NCBI GenBank assembly: GCA_020053615.1
Contig: JAGVMW010000114.1
Coordinates: 1-33,303 of the forward strand
DNA: 33,303 nt
Reading direction: 5' to 3'
Source of the DNA: an archaeon
GTDB lineage: Archaea > Nanobdellota > Nanobdellia > Woesearchaeales > GW2011-AR9
This document shows, one piece after another, positions 118-33,165 of the stretch. Position numbers and translations under genes: made by a program. Each line of letters starts with the position of its first letter. Positions within the stretch are counted from its first letter, which is position 1. Under the pieces are notes generated by a model. That model was not told where the DNA came from. It was given only the letters and a program-made list of their open reading frames with translations, and did not search any database.

Positions 118-286
118 GGTCGGGTCGGCAAACAGGGGTTTACAGGAATTTTACTCGGCTCGTAAAATTCCCAAATGTCAATCCAGCTCTCAAAAATTTC
201 TCAGCTCTGATTTTTCATGGGTTGCCGAAAAATCGAGGAGAAATTTTTGGAGGGATTGCCACTTCTGTAAACCCCATACGTTATAC
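118..286 (+). repeat. Junction element copy A1: 166-nt structured repeat plus core CATAC-GTTATAC (candidate structured ncRNA or attC-like recombination site)
   Basis: By eye, 118-283 matches 19227-19392 at every position except the 12 nt at 216-227. It contains nested inverted repeats: 135-145 GGGGTTTACAG with 265-275 CTGTAAACCCC; 145-154 GGAATTTTAC with 162-171 GTAAAATTCC; and a long imperfect palindrome at 179-258. It starts with CGGGTCGGCAAAC, a motif shared by the other junctions. Confidence 0.8.
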
Positions 287-851: not shown

Positions 852-934
852 CAACTTGCTCCGCTACGCTCCGCACCACGCTACGCTCTCGCTACACTGC
901 GTTTCGCTCGGGGCGTATAACACATACGTTATAC
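852..934 (+). repeat. Junction element J2: GC-rich block (CGCTACGCTC variants) plus core GTATAAC-ACATAC-GTTATAC
   Basis: GCTCGGGGCGTATAAC aligns with the CGGGTCG-N3-AAC motif of the other junctions. The 8-nt arms CGTATAAC (914-921) and GTTATACG (928-935) are perfectly inverted around a 6-nt spacer. Confidence 0.7.
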
Positions 935-936
935 GA

Positions 937-986
937 CATATGACTCAGGACACTTTTTTACTTTTAACGAAGGAGCCCCATTTCCC
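937..986. repeat. Left arm of the inverted repeat flanking the AbiE/GrpB block (pairs with 3401-3476)
   Basis: GGACACTTTTTT (948-959), TTTTAACG (962-969) and GAGCCCCATTTCCC (973-986) recur in the same order as the reverse complement of 3401-3464. Confidence 0.75.
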
Positions 987-1033
987 GTAACTACGCTTTA
1001 TGAATTACCAGATAAGCTTACATGTAAGTAACA

Positions 1034-1044
1034 TTTATATATAA
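1034..1044 (+). promoter_or_regulatory. TATA-box-like element (TTTATATATAA)
   Basis: It lies about 25 nt upstream of the ATG at 1064 with no SD, consistent with a leaderless archaeal transcript. Confidence 0.45.
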
Positions 1045-1063
1045 GTTCAATTACCTACATCCT

Positions 1064-1648
1064 ATGCGCGGACTTAAAAGAGAAATGATCCTACGAGTAC
1101 TCCTCGCAGAATCTAAATCATTAAGCAAGAATGAACTTTCTAAAAGAGCTAACTGTAGCAGGCAGTGGGTTATTCTCTTCTTACGAGAACTAGAAAAAAA
1201 GAAACTCGTCAAAAAAACAAAAGTTGTTGATCCTGCTGGACTTATTAAATTTTGGCTAACAATCCATAAAAAACCTAAGAAATACCAAGAATACATGATT
1301 AAAGAGCCTCTAAAATTACTGAAAAAGACAAAATCAGACTATGCTCTCACCACTTATCAAGCCGAAAATATTGTACAACGCCATCTTTTCCCATCAAGAA
1401 TAGATATTTACATTAAAGAAGAAGATTTACAAGCGTGGCATTCCTTTCTACTAAAAGAAGGCTTATACGGAAAGGGTAATGTTCGTACCATCGTAACAGA
1501 AGAACAGACTTTTTATGGAAAACGAAAGCTAAACGGCCTTTCTGTTGTTTCCCTACCACAGCTCATTATCGATTTATTCACCGAGGGAGGACCAGCAGCA
1601 GAAGCCGCGGAGATACTTCTTGCTCAATTGAGGAAACATGTATCTTGA
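1064..1648 (+). CDS. Putative winged-helix regulator, AbiEi-like antitoxin partner
   Basis: The N-terminal region is wHTH-like (ILRVLLAESKSLSKNELSKRANCSRQWVILFLRELEKKKLV). The gene overlaps the downstream AbiEii-like nucleotidyltransferase gene by 11 nt. Confidence 0.45.
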   Translation: MRGLKREMILRVLLAESKSLSKNELSKRANCSRQWVILFLRELEKKKLVKKTKVVDPAGLIKFWLTIHKKPKKYQEYMIKEPLKLLKKTKSDYALTTYQAENIVQRHLFPSRIDIYIKEEDLQAWHSFLLKEGLYGKGNVRTIVTEEQTFYGKRKLNGLSVVSLPQLIIDLFTEGGPAAEAAEILLAQLRKHVS

Positions 1649-2423
1649 ATTTGAAACGAGAACCTCGTACAAATATCTCAAACAAGTAATCTCTGCCTTA
1701 GAGGAACCTATTTGCATTCTCGGGGGATGGGCAGTATTTCTTCACGTAAACAAGAACTTTCAAAAGGCACAGGGCAGACCATATCTTGGAAGTAGAGATA
1801 TTGATTTAGGATTCAACCTGGATAAAAATGCAACCGTAGAGCAAATGAAAAATTCTGCACTTGCAAAGTCACTTGATGTTCTTCAAAATAAGCTTAAATT
1901 TAAGTCCGTGTCCTTTCGACTACTCAAAGAAATCCATACTGAAACGGAGGAGGAAATCGAGGAAGGAAAGATTATTCCAGCGCATTTTATCTTTCCGATG
2001 TATGTTGATGTGCTTGTTGACAACATCCCTGCAAAATTCAAAGAGGTTTTCCGTTTTCAACCAGCAGACGAGCCATTATTACGTTTTGCGTTTGAGGATG
2101 GAAAATATAGAAAAGAATTAAAAGAGTTCAACAAGAGATTGTTGCTACCAAAACCAGAGTTATTACTTGCTACAAAATTTAATGCTTTAAAGCACAGAGA
2201 TAAAGAGCACAAGAAAATAAAAGACATCTGTGATATTTTCGCGTTACTTTGGTATACAGAAGAAAAACCAGAAGCTTTGAGAGAAAAAATAAGAAGTTTT
2301 ATTAGTCATCAATCTCTTTCAAAATCGATCAAATCTATTGATGGAAGCGATTATCAAAAAGCAGCAAACCAACTAAATCACTCACCGATAGAAATTAGAC
2401 GAGTGGTAGAAATACTACTATGA
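1638..2423 (+). CDS. Nucleotidyltransferase, AbiEii/AbiGii (DUF1814)-like toxin
   Basis: It has a GGWAVFLH...GSRDIDLGF NTase motif and a C-terminal KFNALKHRDKEHKKIKDICDIFAL helix, both typical of the AbiEii family. Confidence 0.55.
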   Translation: MYLEFETRTSYKYLKQVISALEEPICILGGWAVFLHVNKNFQKAQGRPYLGSRDIDLGFNLDKNATVEQMKNSALAKSLDVLQNKLKFKSVSFRLLKEIHTETEEEIEEGKIIPAHFIFPMYVDVLVDNIPAKFKEVFRFQPADEPLLRFAFEDGKYRKELKEFNKRLLLPKPELLLATKFNALKHRDKEHKKIKDICDIFALLWYTEEKPEALREKIRSFISHQSLSKSIKSIDGSDYQKAANQLNHSPIEIRRVVEILL

Positions 2424-3391
2424 TAAAAATGGAAAAGTACCGATTCAGAGAATATAATTCAAAGTACAAGAAGTTCTTTTTGAAAGAGAAGAACACCATA
2501 ACAAAAGCGCTTGGGGACAATTGCTTCATAGAACATGTGGGAAGCACATCCATTCCAAGCCTCGGCGGAAAAGGTATTGTTGATGTTTTAGTAGGCGTTA
2601 AATCCAAGAATCACCCTAAATTTATCAAAACGCTGAAATCTACAGGTTATGAATTCAGAGAAAAAGCAAGTACATCAGACCGACTCTTTTTCAGGAGAGA
2701 TTACAACTCAGGTAAAGAAACAAGAAGAGTACACATTCATTTAACCAAATTTGACGGTAAAGACTGGAATGAGATGATCGCTTTCCGAGATTACTTGTTA
2801 AAACATCCAGAAGATGTAAAGAAATACGTAAAAATCAAGAAAGAAGCAGTGGAAAAAGCAAAAGGTGAAGGAGAGATTTACCGAGAATTTAAACAATCAT
2901 TCATGGAAGAAATTACCAGAAAACAGTTAGCTATTAACGAACTCAGAAGAAAAGTTCAAGAGATAGTTAAAATTGCTACTACTCTCAAAAATAAGCACAT
3001 CAGCAATAAAAATGCACCCGTAAACTATGCCTGTATCTTCTCCCATAGCCAAAAAGAATATGAAGAGTCAATAAGAATTACACAGAGCATAGGAAAAATA
3101 GTAAAAGAAACACCAACAGGTTTACTATTCCAAGTTGAACCGTTAAAAACCGTTTCTGGTATTCTGAAATTACTCAAAATTCGTATTCCTGATGCTACAC
3201 GGCCGGAACTGGGTGATGCCGATTTTACAATCACAAATTTTCAAAGCTTCAAGAAAAAACATCTTCAAAAAAGAGGATTCAAGCTAATTCCACGTGAACA
3301 TTTTGAAATGATTGAACTTGTAGATTCTAAGTTTAATGTGAGAGCATATTTTTCAAATCCGCCACTGGATAAACAATTAAAAATAAAGTAA
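2420..3391 (+). CDS. GrpB (UPF0157) nucleotidyltransferase-fold domain fused to an unknown C-terminal domain of about 150 aa
   Basis: EHVGSTSIPSLGGKGIVDVLVGV, RRVHIHL and FRDYLLKHPEDVKKYVKIKKE match GrpB signatures. The start overlaps the upstream stop as ATGA. Confidence 0.7.
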   Translation: MIKMEKYRFREYNSKYKKFFLKEKNTITKALGDNCFIEHVGSTSIPSLGGKGIVDVLVGVKSKNHPKFIKTLKSTGYEFREKASTSDRLFFRRDYNSGKETRRVHIHLTKFDGKDWNEMIAFRDYLLKHPEDVKKYVKIKKEAVEKAKGEGEIYREFKQSFMEEITRKQLAINELRRKVQEIVKIATTLKNKHISNKNAPVNYACIFSHSQKEYEESIRITQSIGKIVKETPTGLLFQVEPLKTVSGILKLLKIRIPDATRPELGDADFTITNFQSFKKKHLQKRGFKLIPREHFEMIELVDSKFNVRAYFSNPPLDKQLKIK

Positions 3392-3400
3392 CACAACCTT

Positions 3401-3476
3401 GGGAAATGGGGCTCTATGACGTTAAAAACCGATGGCTCGCTGTGCTCGCCCGAAAAAAGTGTCCTTGCGTCATACG
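3401..3476. repeat. Right arm of the inverted repeat flanking the AbiE/GrpB block
   Basis: GGGAAATGGGGCTC (3401-3414), CGTTAAAA (3420-3427) and AAAAAAGTGTCC (3453-3464) are reverse complements of the left-arm blocks. A GC-rich insert of about 25 nt sits between them. Confidence 0.75.
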
Positions 3477-3565
3477 CCTCCGCTCCTCGACTGCGGTCTG
3501 CGGTGCTCTGGGACGTTGCACTTTCGCTTCGCTCACCTCGTATAACAGCAACTGCGACGTTAAAC
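3477..3565 (+). repeat. Junction element J3: GC-rich block plus core GTATAAC...GTTAAAC
   Basis: ACGTTGCACTTTCGCTTCGCTCACCTCGTATAAC-AGCAACTGCGAC-GTTAAAC aligns with J2 and J4. It has the same orientation as all other junctions. Confidence 0.7.
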
Positions 3566-3800
3566 AAAATTTTCTTACTGCCTAGTAGGTTCACTTCGTT
3601 CCCGAAAATCCTTAAAGTTAGTGCCTTCGTTAAATCTGGTAAAACGGAAACTCAAACAATCACTTCGTGACTATTTCTAACATTGATTTAACGACTACAT
3701 TTCATTCGACCCAAATTTTTACTTACTTTAAACGACTGGGGGGAATTCCGTAACGATAACTAAACGAAAAACGAACCGAAAAGAGGGGGGGCGAGAAAAC
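3566..3800 (-). repeat. Inverted copy of the leader-type (S2) repeat, abutting the hsdR stop codon
   Basis: The reverse complement contains GTTTTCTCGCC (3790-3800), ACGGAATTCCCCCC (3738-3751), TTAAAGTAAGTAAAAA (3716-3731) and GGCAGTAAGAAAA (3570-3582). These are in the same order as 13712-13904. Confidence 0.75.
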
Positions 3801-7338: not shown

Positions 7339-8645
7339 GCTCTAACCTCAACAGGAACTCTGATTTTTCCTGATATTAATCTTGGAAGCAGGGAATCTCG
7401 GATTTGTGAGAGTATATTTTGAGTATTGATATTATCTTCACATTTAAGCATTATTTTAATGATCGAATCTTCAAATTTTGAAATAACTTCTTTACTCGGA
7501 ACTATTATGGACATATCCAATATATCGCTGGCAGATATCCTTTGGTGACTGCCACTCGTTCCCCTGGCCATCTGTACCAACTCACCTAACACGGAATGTT
7601 CTTTAAACAGAAGATATAAGTAGCAAAAAAAGGATTTATTTGGTTTGAAAACTAAAAATTCAGTTGAGCATATTGATTTTTCTTTAGCATTTATGACTGG
7701 CCAGATTCTGGGAATTCTTGGATTCAATTTAGAGAATAAGACAGACATATTAGTGACAATAAATTTGTTGCTTAATATTTCAGAACCCCTTTGATCAAAT
7801 GATGTTTTCCCGCCATCGTATGCTTCAATACTCAAGTGACTAAATATCTCTTCAGGAGAACTAACTGGATTTATTTGTTCCTTATTTTGCGTAGCAATAT
7901 TATGAATCATTCCAATTTTCCATCCTTTCGGTATCTTTCCTAACTCAGAATCAACCATTTCTCCGCCAGTAGACTTATATGGCTTTCCTTTCTCGTTTTG
8001 AAATTCAAAGTCTATAAACCATCTTTTGAAGATTGCTCGGCTTAACTCCTCCAAAACTTTATTTATCTTCTGATTAAGTTCTATTTTTAAATCTAAATCT
8101 GAGAGGATTTTAGCGATGGCAATTTGTTCAGGAAAAGAGGGGATATTGATTTCATAGCTCATAATCGAATTTTTATCTCCACGTGGCATTTTGGTTCCTT
8201 TAGAAGTCAAAACAGTAAATTCAAAAAAGTTATCTTGAGATAAATAGTAGTAAAGATATTTGTTGTTTATGCTTGATTTTTTCCTTATAACCAATACATC
8301 ATTAGAACAACCACCGGAAAATTTTGCCAACCAAAATTTCTTAAAATATGTCCTAATATTTGAGAATAAAATATCTCCTTCTCTGAATTGAGTTACCTTC
8401 CCAACTTTAGGTAATGAAGAAGCCACAGTAATCCCGCCTTTTTCAGGCAGCATATTTTCGGTTGAAATAAAATTATTCAGATTTATTTCAACAAGACTAA
8501 TCTTTTCAGTAATATATGAAGCAGTTTCTTTTAACTCTTTAACTTCCCAATCTTCAGGAATCATTCCTATTTCAGTTTGCTTCATCTTTGATGAATGCTC
8601 AGAAAACTTGTTTTCTGTTGGTTTTAATTTAGTTTGTTGTTTCAT
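7326..8645 (-). CDS. hsdS: Type I restriction enzyme specificity subunit (two target recognition domains)
   Basis: The TRD-start motif is duplicated (IPEDWEVKELKE and IPKGWKIGMIHNI). Conserved spacer helices are present (AIAKILSDLDLKIELNQK and SQIRDSLLPRLISGKI). Confidence 0.9.
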   Translation of the reverse strand: MKQQTKLKPTENKFSEHSSKMKQTEIGMIPEDWEVKELKETASYITEKISLVEINLNNFISTENMLPEKGGITVASSLPKVGKVTQFREGDILFSNIRTYFKKFWLAKFSGGCSNDVLVIRKKSSINNKYLYYYLSQDNFFEFTVLTSKGTKMPRGDKNSIMSYEINIPSFPEQIAIAKILSDLDLKIELNQKINKVLEELSRAIFKRWFIDFEFQNEKGKPYKSTGGEMVDSELGKIPKGWKIGMIHNIATQNKEQINPVSSPEEIFSHLSIEAYDGGKTSFDQRGSEILSNKFIVTNMSVLFSKLNPRIPRIWPVINAKEKSICSTEFLVFKPNKSFFCYLYLLFKEHSVLGELVQMARGTSGSHQRISASDILDMSIIVPSKEVISKFEDSIIKIMLKCEDNINTQNILSQIRDSLLPRLISGKIRVPVEVRAWHF

Positions 8646-9007
8646 TTCTTTTTTGCCTTCTTAGCCCAAAATGTAGATTTATCTCCTGCATGAAATCGTA
8701 TCTCGCCTTCTGCGACCTCATCAGGGTTAATCTTCATCCATCCGTCACCATTTGCAGAGTCGCATTCATCACTGCCCTCAAAGGTGAAATCATAAATCAA
8801 GTCCCCATCACATTTCTTAAAATCCCCATACATTGAACCTTGCACCAATCCAAAATGAAACTCCCCACTGCCTATTTGTTCTATTCTGATGAATGCCTGC
8901 ACTTCTTCATTGACATAATCATTATCCCATTCACTCATTTTTGTAATGTGCCATGTTCCAATGAAATCTTTTTTTCCTATTTTCGTTCGTTTTATTTTAG
9001 TTTTCAT
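8642..9007 (-). CDS. Hypothetical protein embedded in the Type I R-M operon
   Basis: It has 4-nt overlaps with both neighbours. I recognise no motif. Confidence 0.55.
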   Translation of the reverse strand: MKTKIKRTKIGKKDFIGTWHITKMSEWDNDYVNEEVQAFIRIEQIGSGEFHFGLVQGSMYGDFKKCDGDLIYDFTFEGSDECDSANGDGWMKINPDEVAEGEIRFHAGDKSTFWAKKAKKK

Positions 9008-10038
9008 CCTAAATCATTAAGCCTCTTTTCTATATCTTCTTTAGATGGCAGATACTTCATGAGTTCTTTAGGAAGCAATTGCGTTATTTTATATGTAGCA
9101 ACTCCAATTGGCTTTTTGGCATCGCGCAAAGCGTACTCTACTGTTGTTCTTCTCTTTTCTTTGCAGATAATAATACCTATAGAAGCATTCTCCTCATCTA
9201 ATTTAATCCGGCTATCCAATGCCGAAAGATAGAACTGCATTTTTCCGGCATATTCCGGTTTGAACTTACCCACTTTTAATTCAATAGCGACCAAACTTCT
9301 TAATTTTCGATGATATAATAACAAATCAATAAAGTATTCTTCATCATCTACTTCCATCCTATATTGGCTTCCAACGAAACAGAAATAGTTGCCCATCTCT
9401 GATAGGAAATTTTTGATTCTACTAACAAGGGCATTTTCCATTTCTTTTTCAGAGTGTTCTTCTCCCAACTCCAAAAAATCAAAAGTATACTCGTCTTTGA
9501 CCGCTAATTTAGCTTGATTTTGATATTTAACCGGAACAGTTTGGTCAAAGTTTGTTTGGTTGAGAAGATATTTTTCATAAGACTTGTTCTCAATTTGATG
9601 GATTAGGACATCTTTAGTCCAGCCAAACTTTCTGGTCATCTTAATATAAAACTCCCGCTCTAAATCATCTTTGCATTTCTCCATAATGATTATGTTTTTT
9701 ACCCAGCTTATTTCTCGCACCAATGGTGCGAGTTTTTCACTAGCTTTGTAATTTAGGTAAAAATTTCTCATTCTCCAAAGGTTTGCTGAAGAAAAACCTC
9801 CTACGCTAGGATATTCCGCTTGTAAATCTTTAGCTAAAGTTTCTACGATAGATTTACCCCAATCCTGCTTCTCAACTATTTTCTTACCAATATCCCAATA
9901 CAAACCAATGAGTTCTTTATTTACGGCTTTGAGTGCGGAATATTGGGCTTCTCTGATTCTTTGTTTTATTTCAATAAGAAAATGCCGATAATCATCTTTG
10001 GTTAGGTTTTTATTCATGATTTTACCTCCACTTCCCAA
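9004..10038 (-). CDS. DUF1016/YhcG-family PD-(D/E)xK nuclease
   Basis: The N-terminal region reads IREAQYSALKAVNKELIGLYWDIGKKIVEKQ...GFSSANLWRMRNFY. The C-terminal FIDLLLYH...VAIELKVGKF is a D...ExK nuclease core. Confidence 0.85.
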   Translation of the reverse strand: MGSGGKIMNKNLTKDDYRHFLIEIKQRIREAQYSALKAVNKELIGLYWDIGKKIVEKQDWGKSIVETLAKDLQAEYPSVGGFSSANLWRMRNFYLNYKASEKLAPLVREISWVKNIIIMEKCKDDLEREFYIKMTRKFGWTKDVLIHQIENKSYEKYLLNQTNFDQTVPVKYQNQAKLAVKDEYTFDFLELGEEHSEKEMENALVSRIKNFLSEMGNYFCFVGSQYRMEVDDEEYFIDLLLYHRKLRSLVAIELKVGKFKPEYAGKMQFYLSALDSRIKLDEENASIGIIICKEKRRTTVEYALRDAKKPIGVATYKITQLLPKELMKYLPSKEDIEKRLNDLG

Positions 10039-10041
10039 TCT

Positions 10042-10497
10042 TCAGGAATCATTCCTTTCCAGAAGCTTTTCATGGCTCTGGAATTTTTTGGCAAAATAAT
10101 CTTTTTTTGCGCAGGCTTCCCGAATTTCATCAATATGCGCTATATGTTTGTTTTCGTTAAGCCATTCATAAAATAAATATACGCTGAAAATAGTAGAAAG
10201 CAGTTCTGATACTGTGTTAAATATCCACTTATCAATGCACCACCTGAAAAAAGTCTCTAAAGTATACCTATCAATATCCTGCGGGCTTTCTTCTTCATCT
10301 ATTGCTAGATAGTCGTTAATATACAATTCTACATTGTTAAGGTGCTTTTTTATTGTTTTTTTGCTGAGGTTCTTTCGTAATAAGTACTCTTCAAATTGGT
10401 GGAGCAGTGCGATATTTTCTTTTTGAATTTTTTCGTATTTTTCCATTGTCCTACCTTCATCCCTTCTTTCCCCAGTAATATGTATTTCTCTCATCAA
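10042..10497 (-). CDS. Hypothetical protein with weak resemblance to the tyrosine-recombinase N-terminal SAM-like (core-binding) domain
   Basis: FEEYLLRKNLSKKTIKKHLNNVELYINDYL has the pattern of a core-binding domain. The true start may be the ATG at 10446 (MEKYEKIQ). Confidence 0.4.
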   Translation of the reverse strand: MMREIHITGERRDEGRTMEKYEKIQKENIALLHQFEEYLLRKNLSKKTIKKHLNNVELYINDYLAIDEEESPQDIDRYTLETFFRWCIDKWIFNTVSELLSTIFSVYLFYEWLNENKHIAHIDEIREACAKKDYFAKKFQSHEKLLERNDS

Positions 10498-11997: not shown

Positions 11998-13521
11998 TTA
12001 TATCTTAAACCCAATCCCTTCCAGATTCTTCTTTATTTCAACATCCAACTTCTGCCCTTCTTTCATCTGTTCAGATAATTCAGCAGTTAATCGTTTCATC
12101 TTCTCTTCAAATGCTTCGTCGTCTTCTACTTCTTCTTGGATTCCAACATATCTTCCAGGAGTCAGGATAAAATTATTCTTCTCAACCTCTTCCAATTTAG
12201 CGGATTTGCAAAGGCCAGTAACATCTTCATATTTGAGCTTGTTTTCTCCTCTCCATGCGTGATAAGTGGAAGATATTTTCTTAACATCCTCATCAGTTAG
12301 TTCTCTATGTCTTCGGTCAATCATCACACCCATATTTCTGGCATCAATAAACAAGATTTGCCCTCTTCTGTCCCTAAACGAATGGTCTTTTTTATCTCGT
12401 GTAACAAACCACAAGCAGGCAGGAATTCCAGTATTGTAGAATAACTGGGCAGGTAATGCTACCATGCAATCAACAATATCAGAAGTAATCATATCCTTCC
12501 TTATTTCGCCCTCATTAGAAGTATTTGATGACATTGAGCCATTTGCCAGAACAAAGCCAGCTACGCCAGTAGGATTCAAATGATGAATAAAATGCTGAAC
12601 CCAGGCAAAATTGGCATTATTTTTTGGAGGCACTCCAAACTTCCATCTTACATCTTCCTGCAATAATTCGCCATTCCAATCTGAATCATTAAACGGAGGA
12701 TTGGCAAGAATAAAATCTGCTTTCAAATCTTTATGCTGGTCATCATGGAAAGCATCGCCCCATTTGATATTTGAGTCAATCCCTCTGATAGCCATATTCA
12801 TCTTACAAAGCTTCCATGTTGTCTGGTTGCTTTCTTGTCCATAAACCGAAATGTCTTTTATTTTTCCGCCATGAGCCTCTACAAACTTTTCGGATTGAAC
12901 AAACATTCCACCTGAACCACAGCAGGGATCAAATATTCTTCCTTTGTATGGCTCTAACATCTCAGTTAATAGTTTTACAATAGAACGAGGAGTATAGAAC
13001 TGCCCGCCTTTCTTTCCTTCAGCAGAGGCAAATTCACCTAAAAAATATTCATAGACTCTTCCAAGAATGTCTTTACTACGATTCTCTTTATCACCAAGTC
13101 CAATCGTTCCGATTAAATCAATCAATTCCCCTAATCTTTGCTTGTTCAATCCTGGACGAGCATAATTCTTTGGCAAAACTCCTTTAAGTGAGGGATTGTC
13201 TCTTTCAATAATATCCATAGCTTCATCAAGAAATTTTCCAACTTCTGGCTTTTTTGCATTGGCTTGAAGATGCTCCCATCTTGCTACTTTTGGGACAAAG
13301 AAAATTCTCCGCGAAACATACTCATCAACATCTTCTGGATCTGAATCTTTCTCTTTTTTCAGTTTTTCATAAACTTCAGTAAAAGCATCAGAAATATACT
13401 TTAAGAAAATCAAACCTAAAACAACGTGCTTATATTCAGCAGCATCCATATTGCTTCTTAGCTTATCAGCAGAAGACCATAATTTTTGTTCAAACCCTAA
13501 ATTAGCACCGTTATTTGACAT
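11998..13521 (-). CDS. hsdM: Type I R-M N6-adenine DNA methyltransferase subunit
   Basis: It has motif [12 protein letters not shown], motif [10 protein letters not shown] and an HsdM N-terminal domain ([33 protein letters not shown]). Confidence 0.95.
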
Positions 13522-13663
13522 TTTCTCGCCCCCTCTTATCTAACTCTGCTTCCATGCACTTCTCAAACTGACGAGATACTATCCAGCCTTCTTTCTTGCA
13601 TATCTCTCTATACTTATCGTAAAGTTCAGAGTTTACTTTCAATGTGATGTTTTTTGTTTTCAT
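13511..13663 (-). CDS. Ribbon-helix-helix (CopG/Arc-like) small protein RHH-1, translationally coupled to hsdM
   Basis: [41 protein letters not shown] has a beta-strand plus two-helix pattern. The ATG at 13663 is preceded by GGTGGGGTGA. The track ORF (to 13693) begins at a GTG and is probably over-extended. A paralog lies at 32630-32779. Confidence 0.7.
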
Positions 13664-13711
13664 TTCACCCCACCTGATAAGAAATACTTGCACATACTTA
13701 TAAATATTACT

Positions 13712-13904
13712 GTTTTCTCGCCACTAACTACTGAATACTGAAACTCCCACCCTACCCACCCAAAGCGTCTTCTTTTTGTAAAAAGAAGCAAAAACAAAAC
13801 GGAATTCCCCCCTACGAACGACTAAACTAATGTCTGCTTCGCAGTAATTGATGTTAAAGTAAGTAAAAACTACGGCACCTATCTGATTTTCGGCAGTAAG
13901 AAAA
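13712..13904 (+). repeat. Leader-type (S2) repeat upstream of RHH-1/hsdM; the inverted partner of 3566-3800
   Basis: It contains GTTTTCTCGCC (13712-13722), ACGGAATTCCCCCC (13799-13812), TTAAAGTAAGTAAAAA (13854-13869) and GGCAGTAAGAAAA (13892-13904). In addition, 13799-13853 is near-identical to 32898-32953. Confidence 0.8.
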
Positions 13905-13934
13905 CTTCTCCGCTTTTTTTCTGCGGAAAAAAAT

Positions 13935-13984
13935 GCTCGACCCCGTTGCACTCTCGCTACGCTCGGGTCGGCTAACAGCGGAAG
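13935..13984 (+). repeat. Junction element J4, left half (GC-rich block plus CGGGTCGGCTAACAGCGGAAG), interrupted by the IS
   Basis: CCGTTGCACTCTCGCTACGCTCGGGTCGGCTAACAG aligns with J1, J3 and J9. The expected CATAY-GTTAWAY half is found only on the far side of the IS. Confidence 0.7.
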
Positions 13985-15541
13985 CCGTCCCGCAATCCCC
14001 TCCCAAAACACAATTTAAATCTTCATTCTTCTCAGAAAAAAATAAAATCCCTCATTTAACACTCCACTGCTCCTTTCATCCTCCAAATCTTCATTAAATT
14101 ATGAGCAATACAGGCCAAATTAAACTCAATCTTCACCTTTTCCTTGCCTCGAAGCAGGAATTCCCTGAATCCCAAGTTCTGCTTGATATTCCCATACACC
14201 GGCTCGACCGTAATTTTCCGCAAAGAATACACTTTCTTTGCTTCATCTGTTTTCATCTTGTCTCTCATCCTCAGCCGTTCACGGAAGTAGAACGGCACAT
14301 CTTTTTTCTTCCCTAATTTATCATTATAATAACTCAATATCTTCATGCCGTTTTTCCTCGTGTACTGAAACTTGAAGTAAAATCGATGTTTTCCGACGAT
14401 TAATTCATCTCTCTTGGCATCATACTCATACTGGTCGTGATTCAAACTTTGCTCCTTGCCGTCAAACTCTTGTGCTTGTGCACGAGAAGGCACATATAAA
14501 TCAATCTTATTTTCCTCCGCAAATTTAATGTTCCCCGCGTCACTATAACCGCAGTCAACTCCCACCTTTGTGTCATCTTTCAAAGTTATATTCTCTTTAA
14601 CATTCTTCATCTGCGGGATGAACTGGTGAACATCATGCTTGTCCTGGCAGATCTCATTGGCAATAATTATCTGATTCCTGTCGACAGTTAGCTGAGCATT
14701 GTAGCTCAGCTCGGAATGCCTTTTCTTGGTCTGCATGGCTCTGGCTTCAGGATCAGAAAGGGAGACTTTCTTCAACCCATACTTTTCCAGTTCATTTTTA
14801 GCTTGTTCAATATTCTTTTTGACCTTCTTCTTATCTTCTGCCTCATGGAATTCCCTAACTATTTTCTTAAGGTCTCTTTTGTCAATTCCAGTAAGCCCTT
14901 CTTCCCTATCGTCGAAGAGTTGGTCTTCCAGTTCATCCAGAGCTATATCTTCTTTGATCATCTTTTCGATAGCTTGGTCCAGTTTGTCCAACCCTTTCTT
15001 ATCCATATATCTCTTGCTACCAGCGTAGGCCTTTAAGGTTGTTCCATCGATGCTGATAAAGCTGAGGTCAGTAAGGTTGTGCCTGGCGGCGATTTCCACC
15101 GTTTTTTTGAATGCATCTTTGACAAATTCAGGATGTTCCATCCTGAAGCGGTTTATCGTCCTGAAATCTGGATGGACTTTCTCTGCCAGATACATGAAAA
15201 TAAAGTTTTCTCTGGTTGCCCTGGCCAATCTTCTGGAAGATCTGGTTTTGCAAAGCATCCCGTAAACCAAGATTTTCATGATAATTCTCGGGTGATAGGC
15301 AGGATGCCCTGCGCCTTCGTAGATCAAATCAAAGTCGGAGAAATCTAACTCATCAACATAGTTTTCCACTAGGAAACAGATGTGGTCTTTAGGAATGATT
15401 TCTGTTATCGACGGTGGCAGAAGCCAATTCTGGTCTTGGTAAGAATTTATGTATGCCATATTGCACCTCATTTTATTGATGATAAGATTATAACTTGTCG
15501 ACGGGAGAACTAGTATTTATATTTTGTGAATTATGGGACGG
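13985..15541 (-). mobile_element. IS element (IS1182/IS5-like) inserted into a junction element
   Basis: It encodes a single DDE transposase. The ends are imperfectly inverted: CCGTCCCGCAATCC...AAAACACAATTTAAAT at 13985 onward, and the reverse complement of 15500-15541 reads CCGTCCCATAATTC..AAAATATAAATAC. The boundaries could instead be 13992/15534 if CCGTCCC/GGGACGG belongs to the target hairpin. No clear target-site duplication was seen. Confidence 0.6.
14056..15471 (-). CDS. DDE transposase, IS1182/IS5 superfamily
   Basis: The N-terminal DUF772-type region reads HPAYHPRIIMKILVYGMLCKTRSSRRLARATRENFIFMYLA. The C-terminal region reads VEPVYGNIKQNLGFREFLLRGKEKVKIEFNLACIAHNLMKI. Confidence 0.85.
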   Translation of the reverse strand: MRCNMAYINSYQDQNWLLPPSITEIIPKDHICFLVENYVDELDFSDFDLIYEGAGHPAYHPRIIMKILVYGMLCKTRSSRRLARATRENFIFMYLAEKVHPDFRTINRFRMEHPEFVKDAFKKTVEIAARHNLTDLSFISIDGTTLKAYAGSKRYMDKKGLDKLDQAIEKMIKEDIALDELEDQLFDDREEGLTGIDKRDLKKIVREFHEAEDKKKVKKNIEQAKNELEKYGLKKVSLSDPEARAMQTKKRHSELSYNAQLTVDRNQIIIANEICQDKHDVHQFIPQMKNVKENITLKDDTKVGVDCGYSDAGNIKFAEENKIDLYVPSRAQAQEFDGKEQSLNHDQYEYDAKRDELIVGKHRFYFKFQYTRKNGMKILSYYNDKLGKKKDVPFYFRERLRMRDKMKTDEAKKVYSLRKITVEPVYGNIKQNLGFREFLLRGKEKVKIEFNLACIAHNLMKIWRMKGAVEC

Positions 15542-15565
15542 TCTGAGGGGTCCCATATGTTATAT
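15542..15565 (+). repeat. Junction element J4, right half (TCTGAGGGGTCCCATAT-GTTATAT)
   Basis: The core CATATGTTATAT at 15554-15565 completes the junction whose left half ends at 13984. Confidence 0.65.
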
Positions 15566-15685
15566 GACATTTTCTGTCGTTGTAACTGTACTCTACGCTA
15601 ACGCTAAACTCTAAGGACTTTATGATTGACGCTTCCGTGACAGCTAACTTTAAAACTACGAGTGGGGGCTAACTTAACGGAAAGA

Positions 15686-16824: not shown

Positions 16825-17394
16825 GTAAATTTTTTTATTTTAAAGAGATTTCCCACAGTTCAGGCTCATGATCCAGGAACGCCAAACGCCGTTGGCGCGA
16901 TTTCCATCGCCAAAGCCACTGAAGTATTAGAATCAATTGGTTATGATCGTATTCACAAATATGAATCTGAATTAGTTAGAACTGCATTCAGAGGATTAAA
17001 GCAAACTGATGGCGTAACAGTTTATGTTTCTGAATCAGAATTAGGTAGCGTCATTCCTTTTGATATTACAGGGACAGATAGCCGATTAACTGCTGAAATC
17101 CTAAGAGATGATTATGGGATTGGCGTACGAGCAGGTTCATTCTGTACTTATGAATTCATGAGAAAAATCAAAAATATTTCTGATGAACAAGACAAAAAAA
17201 TCTTAGAAGAAATTGATAGAGGCATCACAAGAAGTATTCCCGGAGTTGTTAGGGCTAGTTTTGGCTTAGTGAATAATCAAGAAGATGTTACAAGATTAAT
17301 TTCTGCTGTTAATGAAATCGCTCACAATGGAATAGAACATTATTTCGAAATATACAACCAAGACAATACCACCGGATTGTGGACAAAGAGGTAA
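16825..17394 (+). pseudogene. 5'-truncated class V aminotransferase / cysteine desulfurase-like gene (C-terminal third only)
   Basis: The frame is open from the stop at 16822-16824. From about 16861 it reads QAHDPGTPNAVGAISIAKATEVL... The xxGTPN motif normally sits about two thirds of the way into SufS/NifS-type enzymes. The PLP-lysine region is absent, and there is no ATG before 17158. Confidence 0.65.
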
Positions 17395-18950: not shown

Positions 18951-19226
18951 TCTAATAGTTATTAAATAGACATTTCTTTAAATACTTTGTCCAAACCTGT
19001 CCAGTGACCAGTGGCTCTCTAAATGGAAACAACGGCTCTTAAATCCCCCTAACTTTTGTCTCTCTTCTCTCATATTCAAATAATCGAACTTTTGACGAAC
19101 TACGGTGGCACCTAAAGTCTCGGGAATGTTAAAACTTCTTCGGTTTAATGTCCTTCGGACTTAAACCTCGACCACGCTGCGCTTTCCCTACGATTTTTAT
19201 ATTCCCTTCGGTCATTAAAAATCTTC

Positions 19227-19395
19227 GGTCGGGTCGGCAAACAGGGGTTTACAGGAATTTTACTCGGCTCGTAAAATTCCCAAATGTCAATCCAGCTCTC
19301 AAAAATTTCTCAGCTCTGATTTTTGTGGGCTACCTCAAAAATCGAGGAGAAATTTTTGGAGGGATTGCCACTTCTGTAAACCCCATACGTTAAAC
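19227..19395 (+). repeat. Junction element copy A2: 166-nt structured repeat plus core CATAC-GTTAAAC
   Basis: It matches 118-283 except at 19325-19336. The closing base pair of the apical hairpin is swapped relative to copy A1 (G19325/C19336 versus C216/G227). A TTTTTATATT box at 19193-19202 lies about 25-30 nt upstream. Confidence 0.8.
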
Positions 19396-19399
19396 TCAA

Positions 19400-19434
19400 T
19401 AAAATTTCTGTTAGACTAAACTTAAGGGGTGCTT
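19400..19434. repeat. Left arm of the inverted repeat flanking the GIY-YIG/Mrr/Zn-ribbon block
   Basis: TAAAATTTCTGTTAG (19400-19414) and GGGGTGCTT (19426-19434) are exact reverse complements of 20913-20927 and 20900-20908. Confidence 0.85.
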
Positions 19435-20950: not shown

Positions 20951-21000
20951 CGTTGCACTAAAATTCAATCCTAACGGAGAGTTTAACAGCGATGTTATAC
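20951..21000 (+). repeat. Junction element J7 (CGTTGCACT ... TTTAACAGCGAT-GTTATAC)
   Basis: CGTTGCACT (20951-20959) matches the S1 block of J3 and J4. AACAGCG plus GTTATAC (20985-21000) match the core. It has the same orientation as the other junctions. Confidence 0.6.
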
Positions 21001-31900: not shown

Positions 31901-32672
31901 GTTTATATAAATCCCAATATGCCTGCATAAATTTTCTATCTTTATTCAGCCATTCTTTCTTAGCTATAAAATAAATGAACATAATTCTATTCATAAATTG
32001 TAATGTAAATTCATGGGCTATTTTCGGGTCTACCTTCTGTTTTTTGAGTTCTTTTCTCACCACTAAAAATAGTCTTTGATAATCCTCAAAAAATTTCTTA
32101 GTAACTTTCTGAACATCAAACGCCTCTTTCCATAACCGCCAGAGTTCTCGCCATGTTTTCTTTTGGTCTTCCAGAAATATATTGCAAATTATCTCAATAT
32201 CTGTATAATAAAGCTCATCTTTTTTCAATATTAATGTGGTTGTTTTAAGTTTATGTTTTCCTACCTCCTGCTTTTCGTAATCTGGAAACACAATATGTAT
32301 CTCTTTATAATCGATTGTAATAATTAAGAGACATCGCGTGTACATTTCAGCGAATTTGTTTGCGATATATCGCATAAGAGGCTTACTAAGAGAGTTAGTT
32401 TCAATTAAGAAGACATTGAGTTTATCATAACTCATAACTGTGTAAATTGTTTTAATTTTGTCTCGTTCTTCACTGGCAAAAGAAAATTCTTTTATCTTTT
32501 TAACATAAGATGAATCAAAAATTGCTTCTTTTGGATAATTTAGACTCTTAAACAAACCATATATATCCTCTGAATTCTTTATGAAAGAGATATAATCTTT
32601 AACTTTCTTTCGGAGATCTGAATTATTATTCACTTTTCCCGCCCCCTCTTCTCTAACTCTGCTTCCATGCAT
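28935..32672 (-). CDS. Large N6-adenine DNA methyltransferase, Eco57I/type IIG- or PglX-like
   Basis: Motif I is IVDPACGSGAFLVGML and motif IV is VIGNPPYV, with a coiled-coil insert between them and a long C-terminal region. I could not identify a clear N-terminal nuclease motif. The more likely start is the GTG at 32633, in a GTGA overlap with the RHH-2 stop, rather than the ATG at 32672. Confidence 0.8.
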   Translation of the reverse strand: MHGSRVREEGAGKVNNNSDLRKKVKDYISFIKNSEDIYGLFKSLNYPKEAIFDSSYVKKIKEFSFASEERDKIKTIYTVMSYDKLNVFLIETNSLSKPLMRYIANKFAEMYTRCLLIITIDYKEIHIVFPDYEKQEVGKHKLKTTTLILKKDELYYTDIEIICNIFLEDQKKTWRELWRLWKEAFDVQKVTKKFFEDYQRLFLVVRKELKKQKVDPKIAHEFTLQFMNRIMFIYFIAKKEWLNKDRKFMQAYWDLYKRISKYGNNEFYDKWLKPLFFEAFNNKSSYHPELPEEVNKILSNSPYLNGGLFTKKIGLDDLKINISDNLFKEIFDFFESYNFTIKEDSVLDVEVSVDPQMIGYVYESLANITEDVYENEEDLRGDWGIFYTAKVEVDFMCRRSLVEYLGKNLEIPKEELYEFVFDEDKEKIEKKFNQRKCWGKIEEALDNLSIVDPACGSGAFLVGMLNVLVELYKIVFKHIGSSLSDFQLKYRIIQRSLYGVDVMPWAIHASELRLWLQLIVETQFKDEELRKHPLLPNLNMNLRVGDSLVQEIGGISFNVRSNNLKPHLKKKLEELKNEKRRYFENSPSAKYKTPEEFKVQEVRLFEEILNERIESLETDIQVLTHSSSKKEKQTGLFGASVNIDAENIKKEKKNLIELENRIKECADEIEKLKKVKELLKDPAKKPFVWDIDFAEVFADEGGFDIVIGNPPYVRQEKIAPPNKLKEEVTLEDRRGYKEKLIKSVQNRFPVVIDWDKKSDLYVYFYFHGLSLLNSGGVFCFITSNSWLDVGYGKGLQEFLLRYSHVIGIYDNQAKRSFEHADVNTIIALLGAPVIGKQKSLFEYGAEYNGNGKATYSGFSQTARFVMFKKPFEEVVNAANLVKIEKAEKILKTNEFRVYPINQEDLLEDGWEYPEGYENGRFGKGSYEGNKWGSKFLRSPDIVFSILSKKDVGVLKELYGKVDTGLYSGINDFFYLNEEQVKKWKIETDYLIPLIKSPQDVKCISLNKYINKKFVFICNESKNSLKSKDHNNALKYIEWGERQETKEKGKVKAGIPWPEVPTVVNRKPGWWSISNVEFTNCFMLYGYNDRFIHPYSEKKALSDRRFHMIKLKKEVNPKYFSLLLNSTFTALFIEIYGRSNLGQGALDLATMDANKIPMVSLQKLNFSKYNINKFFTREVKSIFEELGIDPTKPIREQEPKPLPDRAELDNIIFDELGLTKEERKEVYWAVCELVQQRLNKATSLKK

Positions 32673-32779
32673 TTCTCAAACTGACGAGAAACTATCCAGC
32701 CTTCTTTTTTGCATAACTCCCTATAGGTATCATACAATTTTGAATTAACTTTCAAAGTGATATTCTTACTCTCTTCCAT
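32630..32779 (-). CDS. Ribbon-helix-helix small protein RHH-2, a paralog of 13511-13663; not in the supplied ORF track
   Basis: My manual translation gives [49 protein letters not shown]. In my alignment 40 of 44 core residues are identical to RHH-1. The gene is preceded by GAGGGAATGA. Confidence 0.7.
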   Translation of the reverse strand: MEESKNITLKVNSKLYDTYRELCKKEGWIVSRQFEKCMEAELEKRGREK

Positions 32780-32849
32780 TATCATTCCCTCTAACTAGAT
32801 TAATAATAAATAACTGCACATACTTATAAAGATTACTATGCTGAAACTC

Positions 32850-32953
32850 TTCTCGCCCCCAACGACTTAAACTGAACTCCCTACTAACAACAAAACTACG
32901 GAATTCCCCCACGACGAACGACTAAAATAATGTCTGCTTCGCAGTAATTGATT
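32850..32953 (+). repeat. Leader-type (S2) repeat upstream of RHH-2 and the methyltransferase
   Basis: TTCTCGCCCCC (32850-32860) and ACGGAATTCCCCC...CGAACGACTAAAATAATGTCTGCTTCGCAGTAATTGAT (32898-32953) are near-identical to 13799-13853. Confidence 0.8.
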
Positions 32954-33060
32954 GATGATTCATTAAAAAACTACGGTAGCCCCTAACTCGCTCAGAAACA
33001 AAGTTTCTGGCGTGCAAGAAAAATCGCTGTTTTTCTTCGCATCTCAGCGCTGAAAAAACT

Positions 33061-33165
33061 CTGCGCACTGCGGTGCTTGCCCCGCTGCGCTCTCACTCCA
33101 TTTTTATGTCCTGCGGGACTAAAAATTCCGTTCGGGTCGAGAAACAGCGCACGCATATGTTATAT
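33061..33165 (+). repeat. Junction element J9 (GC-rich block, CGGGTCGAGAAACAGCG, core CATAT-GTTATAT)
   Basis: GCGCTCTCACTCCATTTTTATGTCCTGCGGGACTAAAAATTCCGTTCGGGTCGAG aligns with 19176-19236. The core lies at 33154-33165. Confidence 0.7.

Follow-up and report, generated by a model that had tools for sequence, protein, structure and literature searches.

The 33.3-kb contig considered here, analysed over its entire length of 33,303 nt (the window), reads as an array of gene blocks of a DPANN (Woesearchaeota-like) archaeon. One of these blocks, which carries an AbiE-like gene pair and a GrpB-domain gene, is bracketed by an inverted repeat that we read, at a probability of about 60%, as the outer helix (P1) of a structured recombination site split by integration, the block itself being a cassette in an integron-like array that is probably served by XerA.

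The inverted repeat and the junctions of the array

The repeat consists of eight blocks, all of which lie in mirrored order where the first-pass annotation of this DNA had placed them (Table 1). The mutual reverse complementarity that it described holds for the inner blocks but is imperfect for the outermost pair, in which CATATGAC and GTCATACG agree at 7/8 positions. In a repeat search, two pairs, 973-986/3401-3414 (14 nt) and 947-959/3453-3465 (13 nt), come out as inverted matches without a mismatch (100%). The insert that splits the right arm is 72% G+C and is ancestral, because it is also found in the related loci L007 and L145 and partly in L001 (L-numbers are labels of related loci or contigs that were fetched and compared with the window). 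In a gapped local alignment, the left flank and the reverse-complemented right flank score 50, far beyond the maximum of 33 in 500 shuffles and the 29.5 obtained against all of the remaining window, and a chance origin of the repeat was therefore rejected. Both the TATA-like element and the last stop codon (3391) fall between the arms, which are themselves flanked by the cores GTTATAC and GTTAAAC, such that the promoter and all three genes are enclosed and the whole lies between two junction cores, as had been described. The repeat is the block's own only in part: its outer ~20 nt (…AATATTACTCAGG / …CTGCGTCATAC) are shared with the ends of other cassettes, and one partnerless copy, L148, retains the inner left block.

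The window has a G+C content of ~35%, with TATA-like elements ~25 nt 5′ of the start codons, and the names given to proteins homologous to its genes are Woesearchaeota and Nanoarchaeota; together these features point to a DPANN archaeon. Its blocks are separated by ~90-nt junctions that are richer in G+C than the blocks and end in a dif/attC-like core. Each junction runs from a C-rich stretch through a box ending in AAC (GTATAAC, GTTTAAC, GCAAAC…) and a 6-14 nt spacer to the core GTTAWAY, followed by NNAAT; the scheme can be written R'' …ATAAC-spacer-R' G|TTAWAY-NNAAT, with a putative crossover at G|TTA. The seven window cores were positioned by eye, and the pair CGTATAAC/GTTATACG occurs 4 times in the window versus 0.26 expected. 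The box GTATAAC that closes the AbiE-like/GrpB cassette is perfectly complementary to the core at the start of its own cassette (928-934, GTTATAC) and not to the adjacent GTTAAAC. Similarly, GTTTAAC at 20981-20987 matches its own-start core GTTAAAC at 19389-19395, the adjacent core being GTTATAC. In these two cassettes, which are the informative ones, the closing box thus bears what appears to be the classical sign of a former circle closed across G|TT, and the block would once have been circular. GTATAAC at 915-921 is complementary to GTTATAC at 280-286, the start of the NUDIX cassette, and also to 928-934.

Circularisation in silico, which joins 3392-3559 to 929-1000, brings the arms, the module and the core into one fold, the single long hairpin that had been suggested. 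This circle junction has a folding energy of -50.4 kcal/mol (z-score, z, -7.1), with the arms as the outer helix and CGTATAAC…GTTATACG (R''/R') as the inner helix, both formed, whereas the linear junction 3392-3631, a control of the same length, gives z +1.9. In 40 distinct junctions of related arrays, the module ends in a 7-bp hairpin, H1, with the loop RTAAA. All 7 of its pairs covary and 86% are paired, a value reached in 0/500 shuffles and compared with 29-46% in slid controls; the covariation places the structure under selection in the sites of these arrays. H1 is followed by ACATAAC-N3-GTTATGT, which is 93% paired. The window junctions beside the AbiE-like/GrpB block are more divergent and have no H1. 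A 174-nt repeat (94% identical) at 118-291 and 19227-19400 serves as the junction of two cassettes, and in the junctions 118-291 and 19225-19400 a 140-nt structure lies between the AAC box (GCAAAC) and the core (z -9.4); this is the layout of a canonical attC, in the same array as the split sites.

Rfam at its gathering threshold gave no match in the window or in 7 related loci. The tRNA search of 10 loci found none, and a tRNA-attachment reading was rejected. Elsewhere in the window, an insertion sequence with a DDE transposase gene (14056-15471, minus strand) and imperfect terminal repeats at 13985-13996/15530-15541 appears, over 13972-15565, to have inserted into a junction, between the AAC box at 13972-13978 and the core at 15559-15565.

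Cassette-specific ends, mobility and constraint

Complementarity between the two ends of a block is general. Within the window, the cognate flank pairs score 65.5, 56, 51 and 36.5, and every non-cognate pair scores 28 or less. We extended the comparison to 38 cassettes from 16 loci, namely the window and 15 fetched contigs. Among contigs fetched by the 17-nt core ACATAACATCGTTATGT, a profile of the L001/L007 junctions located arrays in many from DPANN metagenome-assembled genomes (MAGs). In 23/38 cassettes, the cognate end score is above the 99th percentile of 1300 non-cognate pairs; the ends of these cassettes are complementary to each other and not to those of other cassettes. The geometry is also fixed: the left arm begins a median of 4 nt past the 7-nt R', directly after an 11-nt arm TTATGTNNAAT, and the right arm stops at the start of the module (CTCTGCG…/CTTGCTCC…), a median of 64 nt ahead of the next R'. 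Many arms form perfect 15-16 bp stems. One 8-kb locus, L084, holds three identical copies of an 81-nt 'empty' cassette (20-100, 695-776, 2612-2693) composed of a core, a 6-bp tetraloop hairpin, the module and a core; the arms of this cassette meet directly, as TTTTTC-TGCG-GAAAAA. The window has a hairpin almost identical to it, TTTTTTTC-TGCG-GAAAAAAA, at 13913-13932. These empty units place the cargo position at the loop of a hairpin.

Other repeated segments accompany the cassettes. The NUDIX cassette (291-854) contains five nested perfect inverted segments of 14-17 nt, unequally spaced and four of them within coding sequence (Table 1); homologues keep 75, 66, 61 and 44 of the 79 nested pairs as divergence rises, and the segments are natural. 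At 15566-15650, the window has a left half-frame (TTTTCTGTCGTTGTAACTG…GATTGACGCTTCCGTG) common to L001 and L030, while the partner TACAACGACAGAAAA, at the right end in L001 and L030, is absent from the window, and the 3.8-kb block at 15566 therefore looks composite or rearranged. A pair of large blocks on the minus strand has a common upstream region (13521-13869 and 32634-32969, 83-89% identical) containing a small gene at 13511-13693 that was read by eye as ribbon-helix-helix-like. The segment ACGGAATTCCCCCC…AAAGTAAGTAAAAA comes back in inverted orientation at 3716-3751 (3700-3800 region), so that the 10-kb block is bracketed too, though more weakly. The 17-nt core, preceded by a C-rich stretch and either a perfect palindrome or a long hairpin that varies, is also present in contigs of Omnitrophota, Elusimicrobiota, Patescibacteria and other bacterial MAGs (L036, L041, L043, L045, L052, L053, L080, L117, L128 and others) from similar habitats. 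Its matches upstream of transporter genes are unrelated Firmicutes operator-like sites and were set aside.

The AbiE-like/GrpB block occurs in several contexts. Its closest GrpB-fusion relatives are in L001 (77% identity), next to a HEPN/MNT pair and a metallo-β-lactamase-fold gene, and in L007 (71% identity), next to unknown genes and PIN/ribbon-helix-helix genes beside ribosomal genes; both carry both arms, a homologous C-rich module and the core. Five additional contexts of the AbiEii-like gene were compared beyond L001, L007 and L131. The same cassette lies in five neighbourhoods, those of the window, L001, L007, L131 and L145. Both arms are present in all four lineages with intact ends (the window, L001/L002, L007 and L145), the left arm being conserved in L001, L002, L007, L131, L144 and L145 and the right arm in L001, L007 and L145, which bears out the conservation of the arms in homologous blocks elsewhere. 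The conserved 21-mer beside the left arm matched no viral contig and one metagenome contig, L131, in which the left arm follows immediately 3′ of a dif-like site and which ends before the right arm. In L144, GrpB is truncated and the right end has been replaced, which leaves the left arm alone. An exact look-up of the window GrpB protein returned no further contig. Homology among the copies begins at the TTAT… of the left core across differing contexts, and on the right side it spans the right arm and ~45 nt of the module. The block behaves as a mobile cassette. The arms follow cassette status and not particular genes, since L145 has both despite a NUDIX gene in place of GrpB as its third gene, and L146 and L150, in which the two genes sit among housekeeping genes, have neither cores nor arms. 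As such, the polymorphism expected of a mobile block is seen in its occupancy, through the five neighbourhoods and the armless copies outside arrays, but not in its orientation.

The block ends are under constraint. Copies whose genes are 71-82% identical, and whose third codon positions are 53-67% identical, agree at 84-90% over the 135 nt of the left non-coding end, and the outer and inner repeat blocks are conserved among copies. Some changes in one arm are matched in the other. At 947/3465, the window and L001 have A:T, and L007 and L145 have G:C. L001 and L030, which share frames with different cargo, differ by 3+1 compensatory double changes, three between TTTTCTGTCGTTGTA/TACAACGACAGAAAA and GTTTTTGTTGTTGTA/TACAACAACAAAAAC and one more in a second block, and L030 and L086 differ by one (TATTTTCCAACC/GGTTGGAAAATA versus TTTTTTCCAACC/GGTTGGAAAAAA).

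A separate observation concerns L001 (4848-4895) and L002 (14-60), where the coding sequence is 100% identical over 2.3 kb and three differences all fall in the left arm. One of them makes a local palindrome, TTTTTA-C-TAAAAA, and the differences hint at hairpin-templated mutation.

Recombinase, proposed exchange and alternatives

A candidate enzyme lies beside related arrays. In L102 and L026, the array starts at a dif-like 11-6-11 site, and a divergent tyrosine recombinase gene of 281-291 aa lies ~250-310 nt from it. The two proteins score 221 bits (L102) and 215 bits (L026) with the NCBIfam XerA model (NF040815; cut-off 220), and the integron-integrase model TIGR02249 gives 205 bits (cut-off 265) in a match split into two stretches, which implies enzymes without the IntI insert; we class them as apparently XerA-type. 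A third locus with the same layout, L144, has an AbiE-type cassette in its array, a tyrosine-recombinase gene that is covered only in part and shows Pfam integrase domains, and a platform site with a conserved right arm and an indistinct spacer. The platform sites of L026, L102 and L131 fit two 11-nt inverted arms with a 6-nt spacer. The dif site of E. coli is GGTGCGCATAA-TGTATA-TTATGTTAAAT, and the platform sites plainly resemble this sequence. Archaeal dif likewise has an 11-6-11 arrangement, and XerA also binds stem-loop substrates, with lower affinity. The neighbouring gene is that for Hef in L102, and RadA is encoded nearby in L131, so both loci are chromosomal. Between the recombinase or neighbouring gene and the platform site, L102, L026, L131 and L144 also carry a conserved non-coding motif, GTTGTCCAGTG(T/C)GGGAGTGGCT, that has no Rfam or tRNA match.

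In the mechanism that we propose, a tyrosine recombinase of the XerA/IntI family would exchange strands at G|TTA, and a cassette would run from TTA… to the G of the next core with a ~85-nt junction module at its 3′ end. The excised circle would join 3401-3559 to 929-986, with the arms flanking the module and core and pairing as P1 while the R'' at 3540-3546 pairs with G+TTATAC. Integration would cut this site near its tip and leave one half at each end of the cassette, with the cargo in the loop of the hairpin. The predicted circle junction is …GCAACTGCGACG|TTATACGACATATGAC… (also written …CGTATAACAGCAACTGCGACG|TTATACGACATATGACTCAGG…) and the predicted empty site is …GTATAACACATACG|TTAAACAAAATTTTC… (also written …GGGGCGTATAACACATACG|TTAAACAAAATTTTCTTACTG…). 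Pairing of the arms could be maintained by selection or by copying from arm to arm, and P1 may help the core to fold or to be presented when the DNA is single-stranded or extruded, or it may bring the cassette ends together. We infer from the sequences the circular intermediate, folding in vivo, the action of the enzyme on the window cores and the contribution of P1. A broader and decidedly tentative extension is that such arrays form an undescribed sister system to integrons in DPANN archaea and perhaps in bacteria of the candidate phyla radiation (CPR) and Omnitrophota that occur alongside them. It would combine a housekeeping-type XerA, exchanging cassettes, with an 'inside-out' attC made of three helices, with the core at its tip and the cargo in the loop of the outer helix. 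That helix would zip the cassette ends together in single-stranded DNA, which could be environmental DNA taken up by the cell, and would guide cross-domain excision and capture by structure.

A number of results weigh against the split-site reading. Apart from a fragment in the restriction locus, the window contains no recombinase gene, and it has no platform site; a dif-style reading of the cassette cores gives spacers of 5, 8 or 14 nt versus the 6 nt of dif, and the profile of L001/L007 junctions misses the window's own, more divergent junctions, failing to reach them. No significant repeat was found in 15/38 cassettes, two of them in the window. Neither a circle junction nor an empty site was seen for the position of the block, and no inverted copy was found among six copies, a small sample, all in one orientation relative to the cores. 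Within the repeat, the middle block (TTTTAACG/CGTTAAAA) is not retained in L001 and L007, and in L001 one or two changes of the inner block have no counterpart in the other arm. The inner left block is kept without its partner in L148 and partly in L146, so a promoter or operator function may explain part of its conservation.

The main rival to a split site is that the arms are a historical by-product without a present role, a relic of cargo entry into a hairpin frame, which we consider unlikely though it deserves weight. A hairpin 'frame' would have existed first, and cargo would have entered its loop or been exchanged there, or else the right end would be an inverted copy of the left that was made at cassette formation, with the likeness kept by occasional hairpin-templated copying. 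The empty 81-nt units, with their tetraloop hairpin exactly at the cargo position, the different cargos within the same frame ends, the perfect blocks with unequal gaps (the five nested segments of the NUDIX cassette, four in coding sequence, among them) and the left-arm differences of L001 and L002, one palindrome-creating, all speak for such a history. Fixed geometry, conservation above the synonymous rate and repeated compensatory changes suggest, however, that pairing matters now. The two readings overlap, and the by-product one leaves room for a split site.

Roles for the arms in expression fare less well. As outward-facing transcription insulators, the arms would present a T-rich archaeal terminator in opposite orientation at each end and block read-through from neighbours, consistent with left arms that are T-rich on the top strand (GGACACTTTTTTACTTTT in the window; TTTTCTGTCGTTGTA, GTTTTTGTTGTTGTA and TTTTTAGATTTGAGAA elsewhere) and with the position of the left arm directly upstream of the cassette's promoter. 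We judge this improbable: T runs suffice for termination, which leaves the 14-17-nt perfect cassette-specific complementarity, the matched changes and the GC-rich GAGCCCCATTTCCC unexplained, and a terminator scan gave nothing beyond shuffle expectation. An RNA processing stem is likewise unlikely, given that the cassette's promoter comes only after the left arm. The right-end copy of GAGCCCCATTTCCC could instead be a second operator for the winged-helix protein, acting in DNA looping or autoregulation, and the left block is indeed promoter-proximal and kept in copies without cassette ends (L148, partly L146). This would nevertheless cover one block of one cassette, not the three other blocks or the repeats of 22 unrelated cassettes, and the right-end copy is absent from copies outside arrays, which makes it very improbable. 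Inverted repeats on both sides of a group of genes classically mark non-autonomous transposons and invertible segments alike. That reading is largely refuted, and we give it the least credence of all: the block has no target-site duplication, the unit inherited together is asymmetric, starting 8 nt outside the left arm and extending at least 45-85 nt past the right arm, and the arms differ between cassettes, so that no common transposase could recognise them. All six copies, moreover, share one orientation relative to the cores, and there is no invertase gene.

Genes, cargo and known systems

The TATA-box-like element of the block is kept in all homologous blocks and may be read as the archaeal promoter of a leaderless operon. 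Gene 1 is paired with gene 2 in every occurrence. AbiE type IV toxin-antitoxin systems pair an AbiEi antitoxin with an AbiEii nucleotidyltransferase. The 'AbiE' label given to the block is weak in the window, where gene 2 matches Pfam AbiEii (PF08843) at E 6.4e-4 with 20.2 bits, under the 22.5 cut-off, and PADLOC AbiEii at 0.006, while the NCBI name AbiEii/AbiGii is attached to some of its 522 homologues. Gene 3 varies, with NUDIX instead in L145 and an extra peptidase gene before it in L007. The module moves together with the cassette, and its first ~45 nt are homologous across the window, L001, L007 and L145.

Table 1 Coordinates of the repeat, junctions, genes and related sites (window positions unless a locus is named).
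Feature	Position	Strand	Remarks
Left arm	937-986	+	5' half of P1; CATATGAC, (A)GGACACTTTTTT, TTTTAACG, GAGCCCCATTTCCC
Left-arm blocks	937-944; 948-959; 962-969; 973-986		CATATGAC; GGACACTTTTTT; TTTTAACG; GAGCCCCATTTCCC
Right arm	3401-3476	+	3' half of P1; 25-nt GC-rich insert 3428-3452
Right-arm blocks	3401-3414; 3420-3427; 3453-3464; 3469-3476		GGGAAATGGGGCTC; CGTTAAAA; AAAAAAGTGTCC; GTCATACG
Window cores	280-286, 928-934, 3559-3565, 15559-15565, 19389-19395, 20994-21000, 33159-33165
R''-like box GTATAAC	915-921	+	Closes upstream (NUDIX) cassette
Left junction core	928-939	+	R' GTTATAC 928-934; putative crossover G928|T929; dif-like 11-nt arm TTATACGACAT 929-939
TATA-box-like TTTATATATA	1034-1043	+	~25 nt before first ATG
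Gene 1	1064-1648	+	194-aa winged-helix protein (antitoxin-like); weak helix-turn-helix matches only
Gene 2	1638-2423	+	261-aa AbiEii-like nucleotidyltransferase
Gene 3	2420-3391	+	323 aa; GrpB domain (Pfam GrpB 3.3e-38) and ~150-aa C-terminal extension
C-rich junction module (accessory sequence)	3477-3539	+	Travels with AbiE-like/GrpB cassette
R''-like box GTATAAC of AbiE-like/GrpB cassette	3540-3546	+
Right junction core	3559-3565	+	R' GTTAAAC; putative crossover G3559|T3560; start of next cassette
NUDIX block's own repeat	291-304/841-854		Four deeper pairs in addition
NUDIX nested pairs	291-304/841-854, 327-343/774-790, 396-410/743-757, 446-462/690-706, 463-478/623-638
GIY-YIG/Mrr block's own repeat	19396-19449/20890-20933
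L026 platform site	3114-3141		AGTGGACATAA-TAAGAG-TTATGTAAATT
L102 platform site	3547-3574		AGTGGATATAA-TAAGAG-TTCTGTTCAAT
Non-coding motif near platform sites	L102 3320-3350; L026 2838-2870; L131 ~9470; L144 ~215-245		L131 as reverse complement

Besides this block, the cargo of the window comprises a NUDIX gene, a type I restriction system, MNT/HEPN genes, GIY-YIG/Mrr nuclease genes and a large methylase/helicase locus. Through the array system, defence and toxin-antitoxin genes would be able to spread among organisms whose genomes are tiny. The NUDIX protein (348-851, 167 aa) has 618 homologues at E<=1e-20, and the best 120 of the 618, at 68-96% identity, span MAGs of Woese-, Pace- and Nanoarchaeia, Bathyarchaeia, Patescibacteria and Actinomycetia in many neighbourhoods; one copy lies inside a bacterial ABC-transporter operon without cassette ends. 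This distribution looks like cross-domain transfer. In the type I restriction locus (8542-10497), two perfect copies of a 27-nt direct repeat (8542-8568, 10030-10056) lie on either side of a DUF1016/YhcG nuclease gene, and the 151-aa fragment beside it, which has only the N-terminal SAM-like domain of a tyrosine recombinase, is possibly a disrupted recombinase for shuffling the specificity subunit. A class V aminotransferase gene at 16855-17391 is 5'-truncated (Pfam positions 251-371 of 371) and has no start codon; it is a gene fragment carried within a cassette.

We found no published description of such arrays in the open-access literature. Integrons resemble them in having tandem exchangeable gene blocks, a conserved AAC…GTT and an inferred G|TT crossover, whose position is taken from where homology breaks. 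In both, the 3' inverse core matches the cassette's own 5' end, and in the sites the structure is conserved while the sequence is not. The attC tested from Nanoarchaeota has the form ACATAAC-stem-loop-stem-GTTATGG, and thus the same R boxes as the present sites, but its stem lies between the boxes, whereas here it lies outside them and is split by cargo. Published archaeal integrons, described along with clusters of attC sites lacking an integrase (CALINs), have canonical attCs and an IntI with an extra domain (Ghaly et al. 2022, PMC9668308). The contiguous R''-L''-loop-L'-R' hairpin of attC is not found at 3392-3631 (z +1.9) and is found at two other window junctions. The R''-R' gap is 12 nt (3540-3565) and 6 nt (915-934) here and 3 nt in related arrays. 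No integron integrase with an IntI-specific domain is encoded in the window, and the enzymes of related arrays appear to be XerA-type without the insert. Unlike integron cassettes, those described here have their own promoters, reach three or more genes or 12 kb and carry genes in either orientation.

The attachment site of the CTX phage is a folded single-stranded hairpin. Integrative mobile elements exploiting Xer (IMEX), such as this phage at Vibrio dif1, are like the present units in the lack of an integrase of their own, in tandem stacking at a dif-like site and, putatively, in their use of a chromosomal Xer. They differ in that the present units are small non-phage gene cassettes that have an accessory module in common and an outer helix specific to each cassette, and in that the system is archaeal, apparently with a single XerA, and its core spacers are not 6 nt. 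The pdif modules of Acinetobacter are also discrete modules of accessory genes, including toxin-antitoxin genes, that are bounded by Xer-type sites and shuffled between replicons. Their sites are inversely oriented, and they have been shown to be non-excisable and to act through cointegrates (PMC11705084), whereas the junction matches in each present locus are all on one strand and the cores are direct. Extra DNA on one side of the Xer core is a feature shared with cer/psi and archaeal dif, and inverted repeats flank the dif sites of Thermococcales and Methanosphaera (Cortez et al. 2010, PMC2958812). In those systems, however, a fixed chromosomal flank adjoins a single site, in contrast to a cassette-specific helix split by cargo. 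For the origin of integron cassettes and of attC, and for the evolution of IntI from Xer, these arrays offer a natural intermediate, in that they start at a dif-like site beside a xerA-type gene and have R boxes in common with archaeal attC. The structure of their sites is built outside the core and around the cargo, whose position is marked by empty hairpin units and shared frames.

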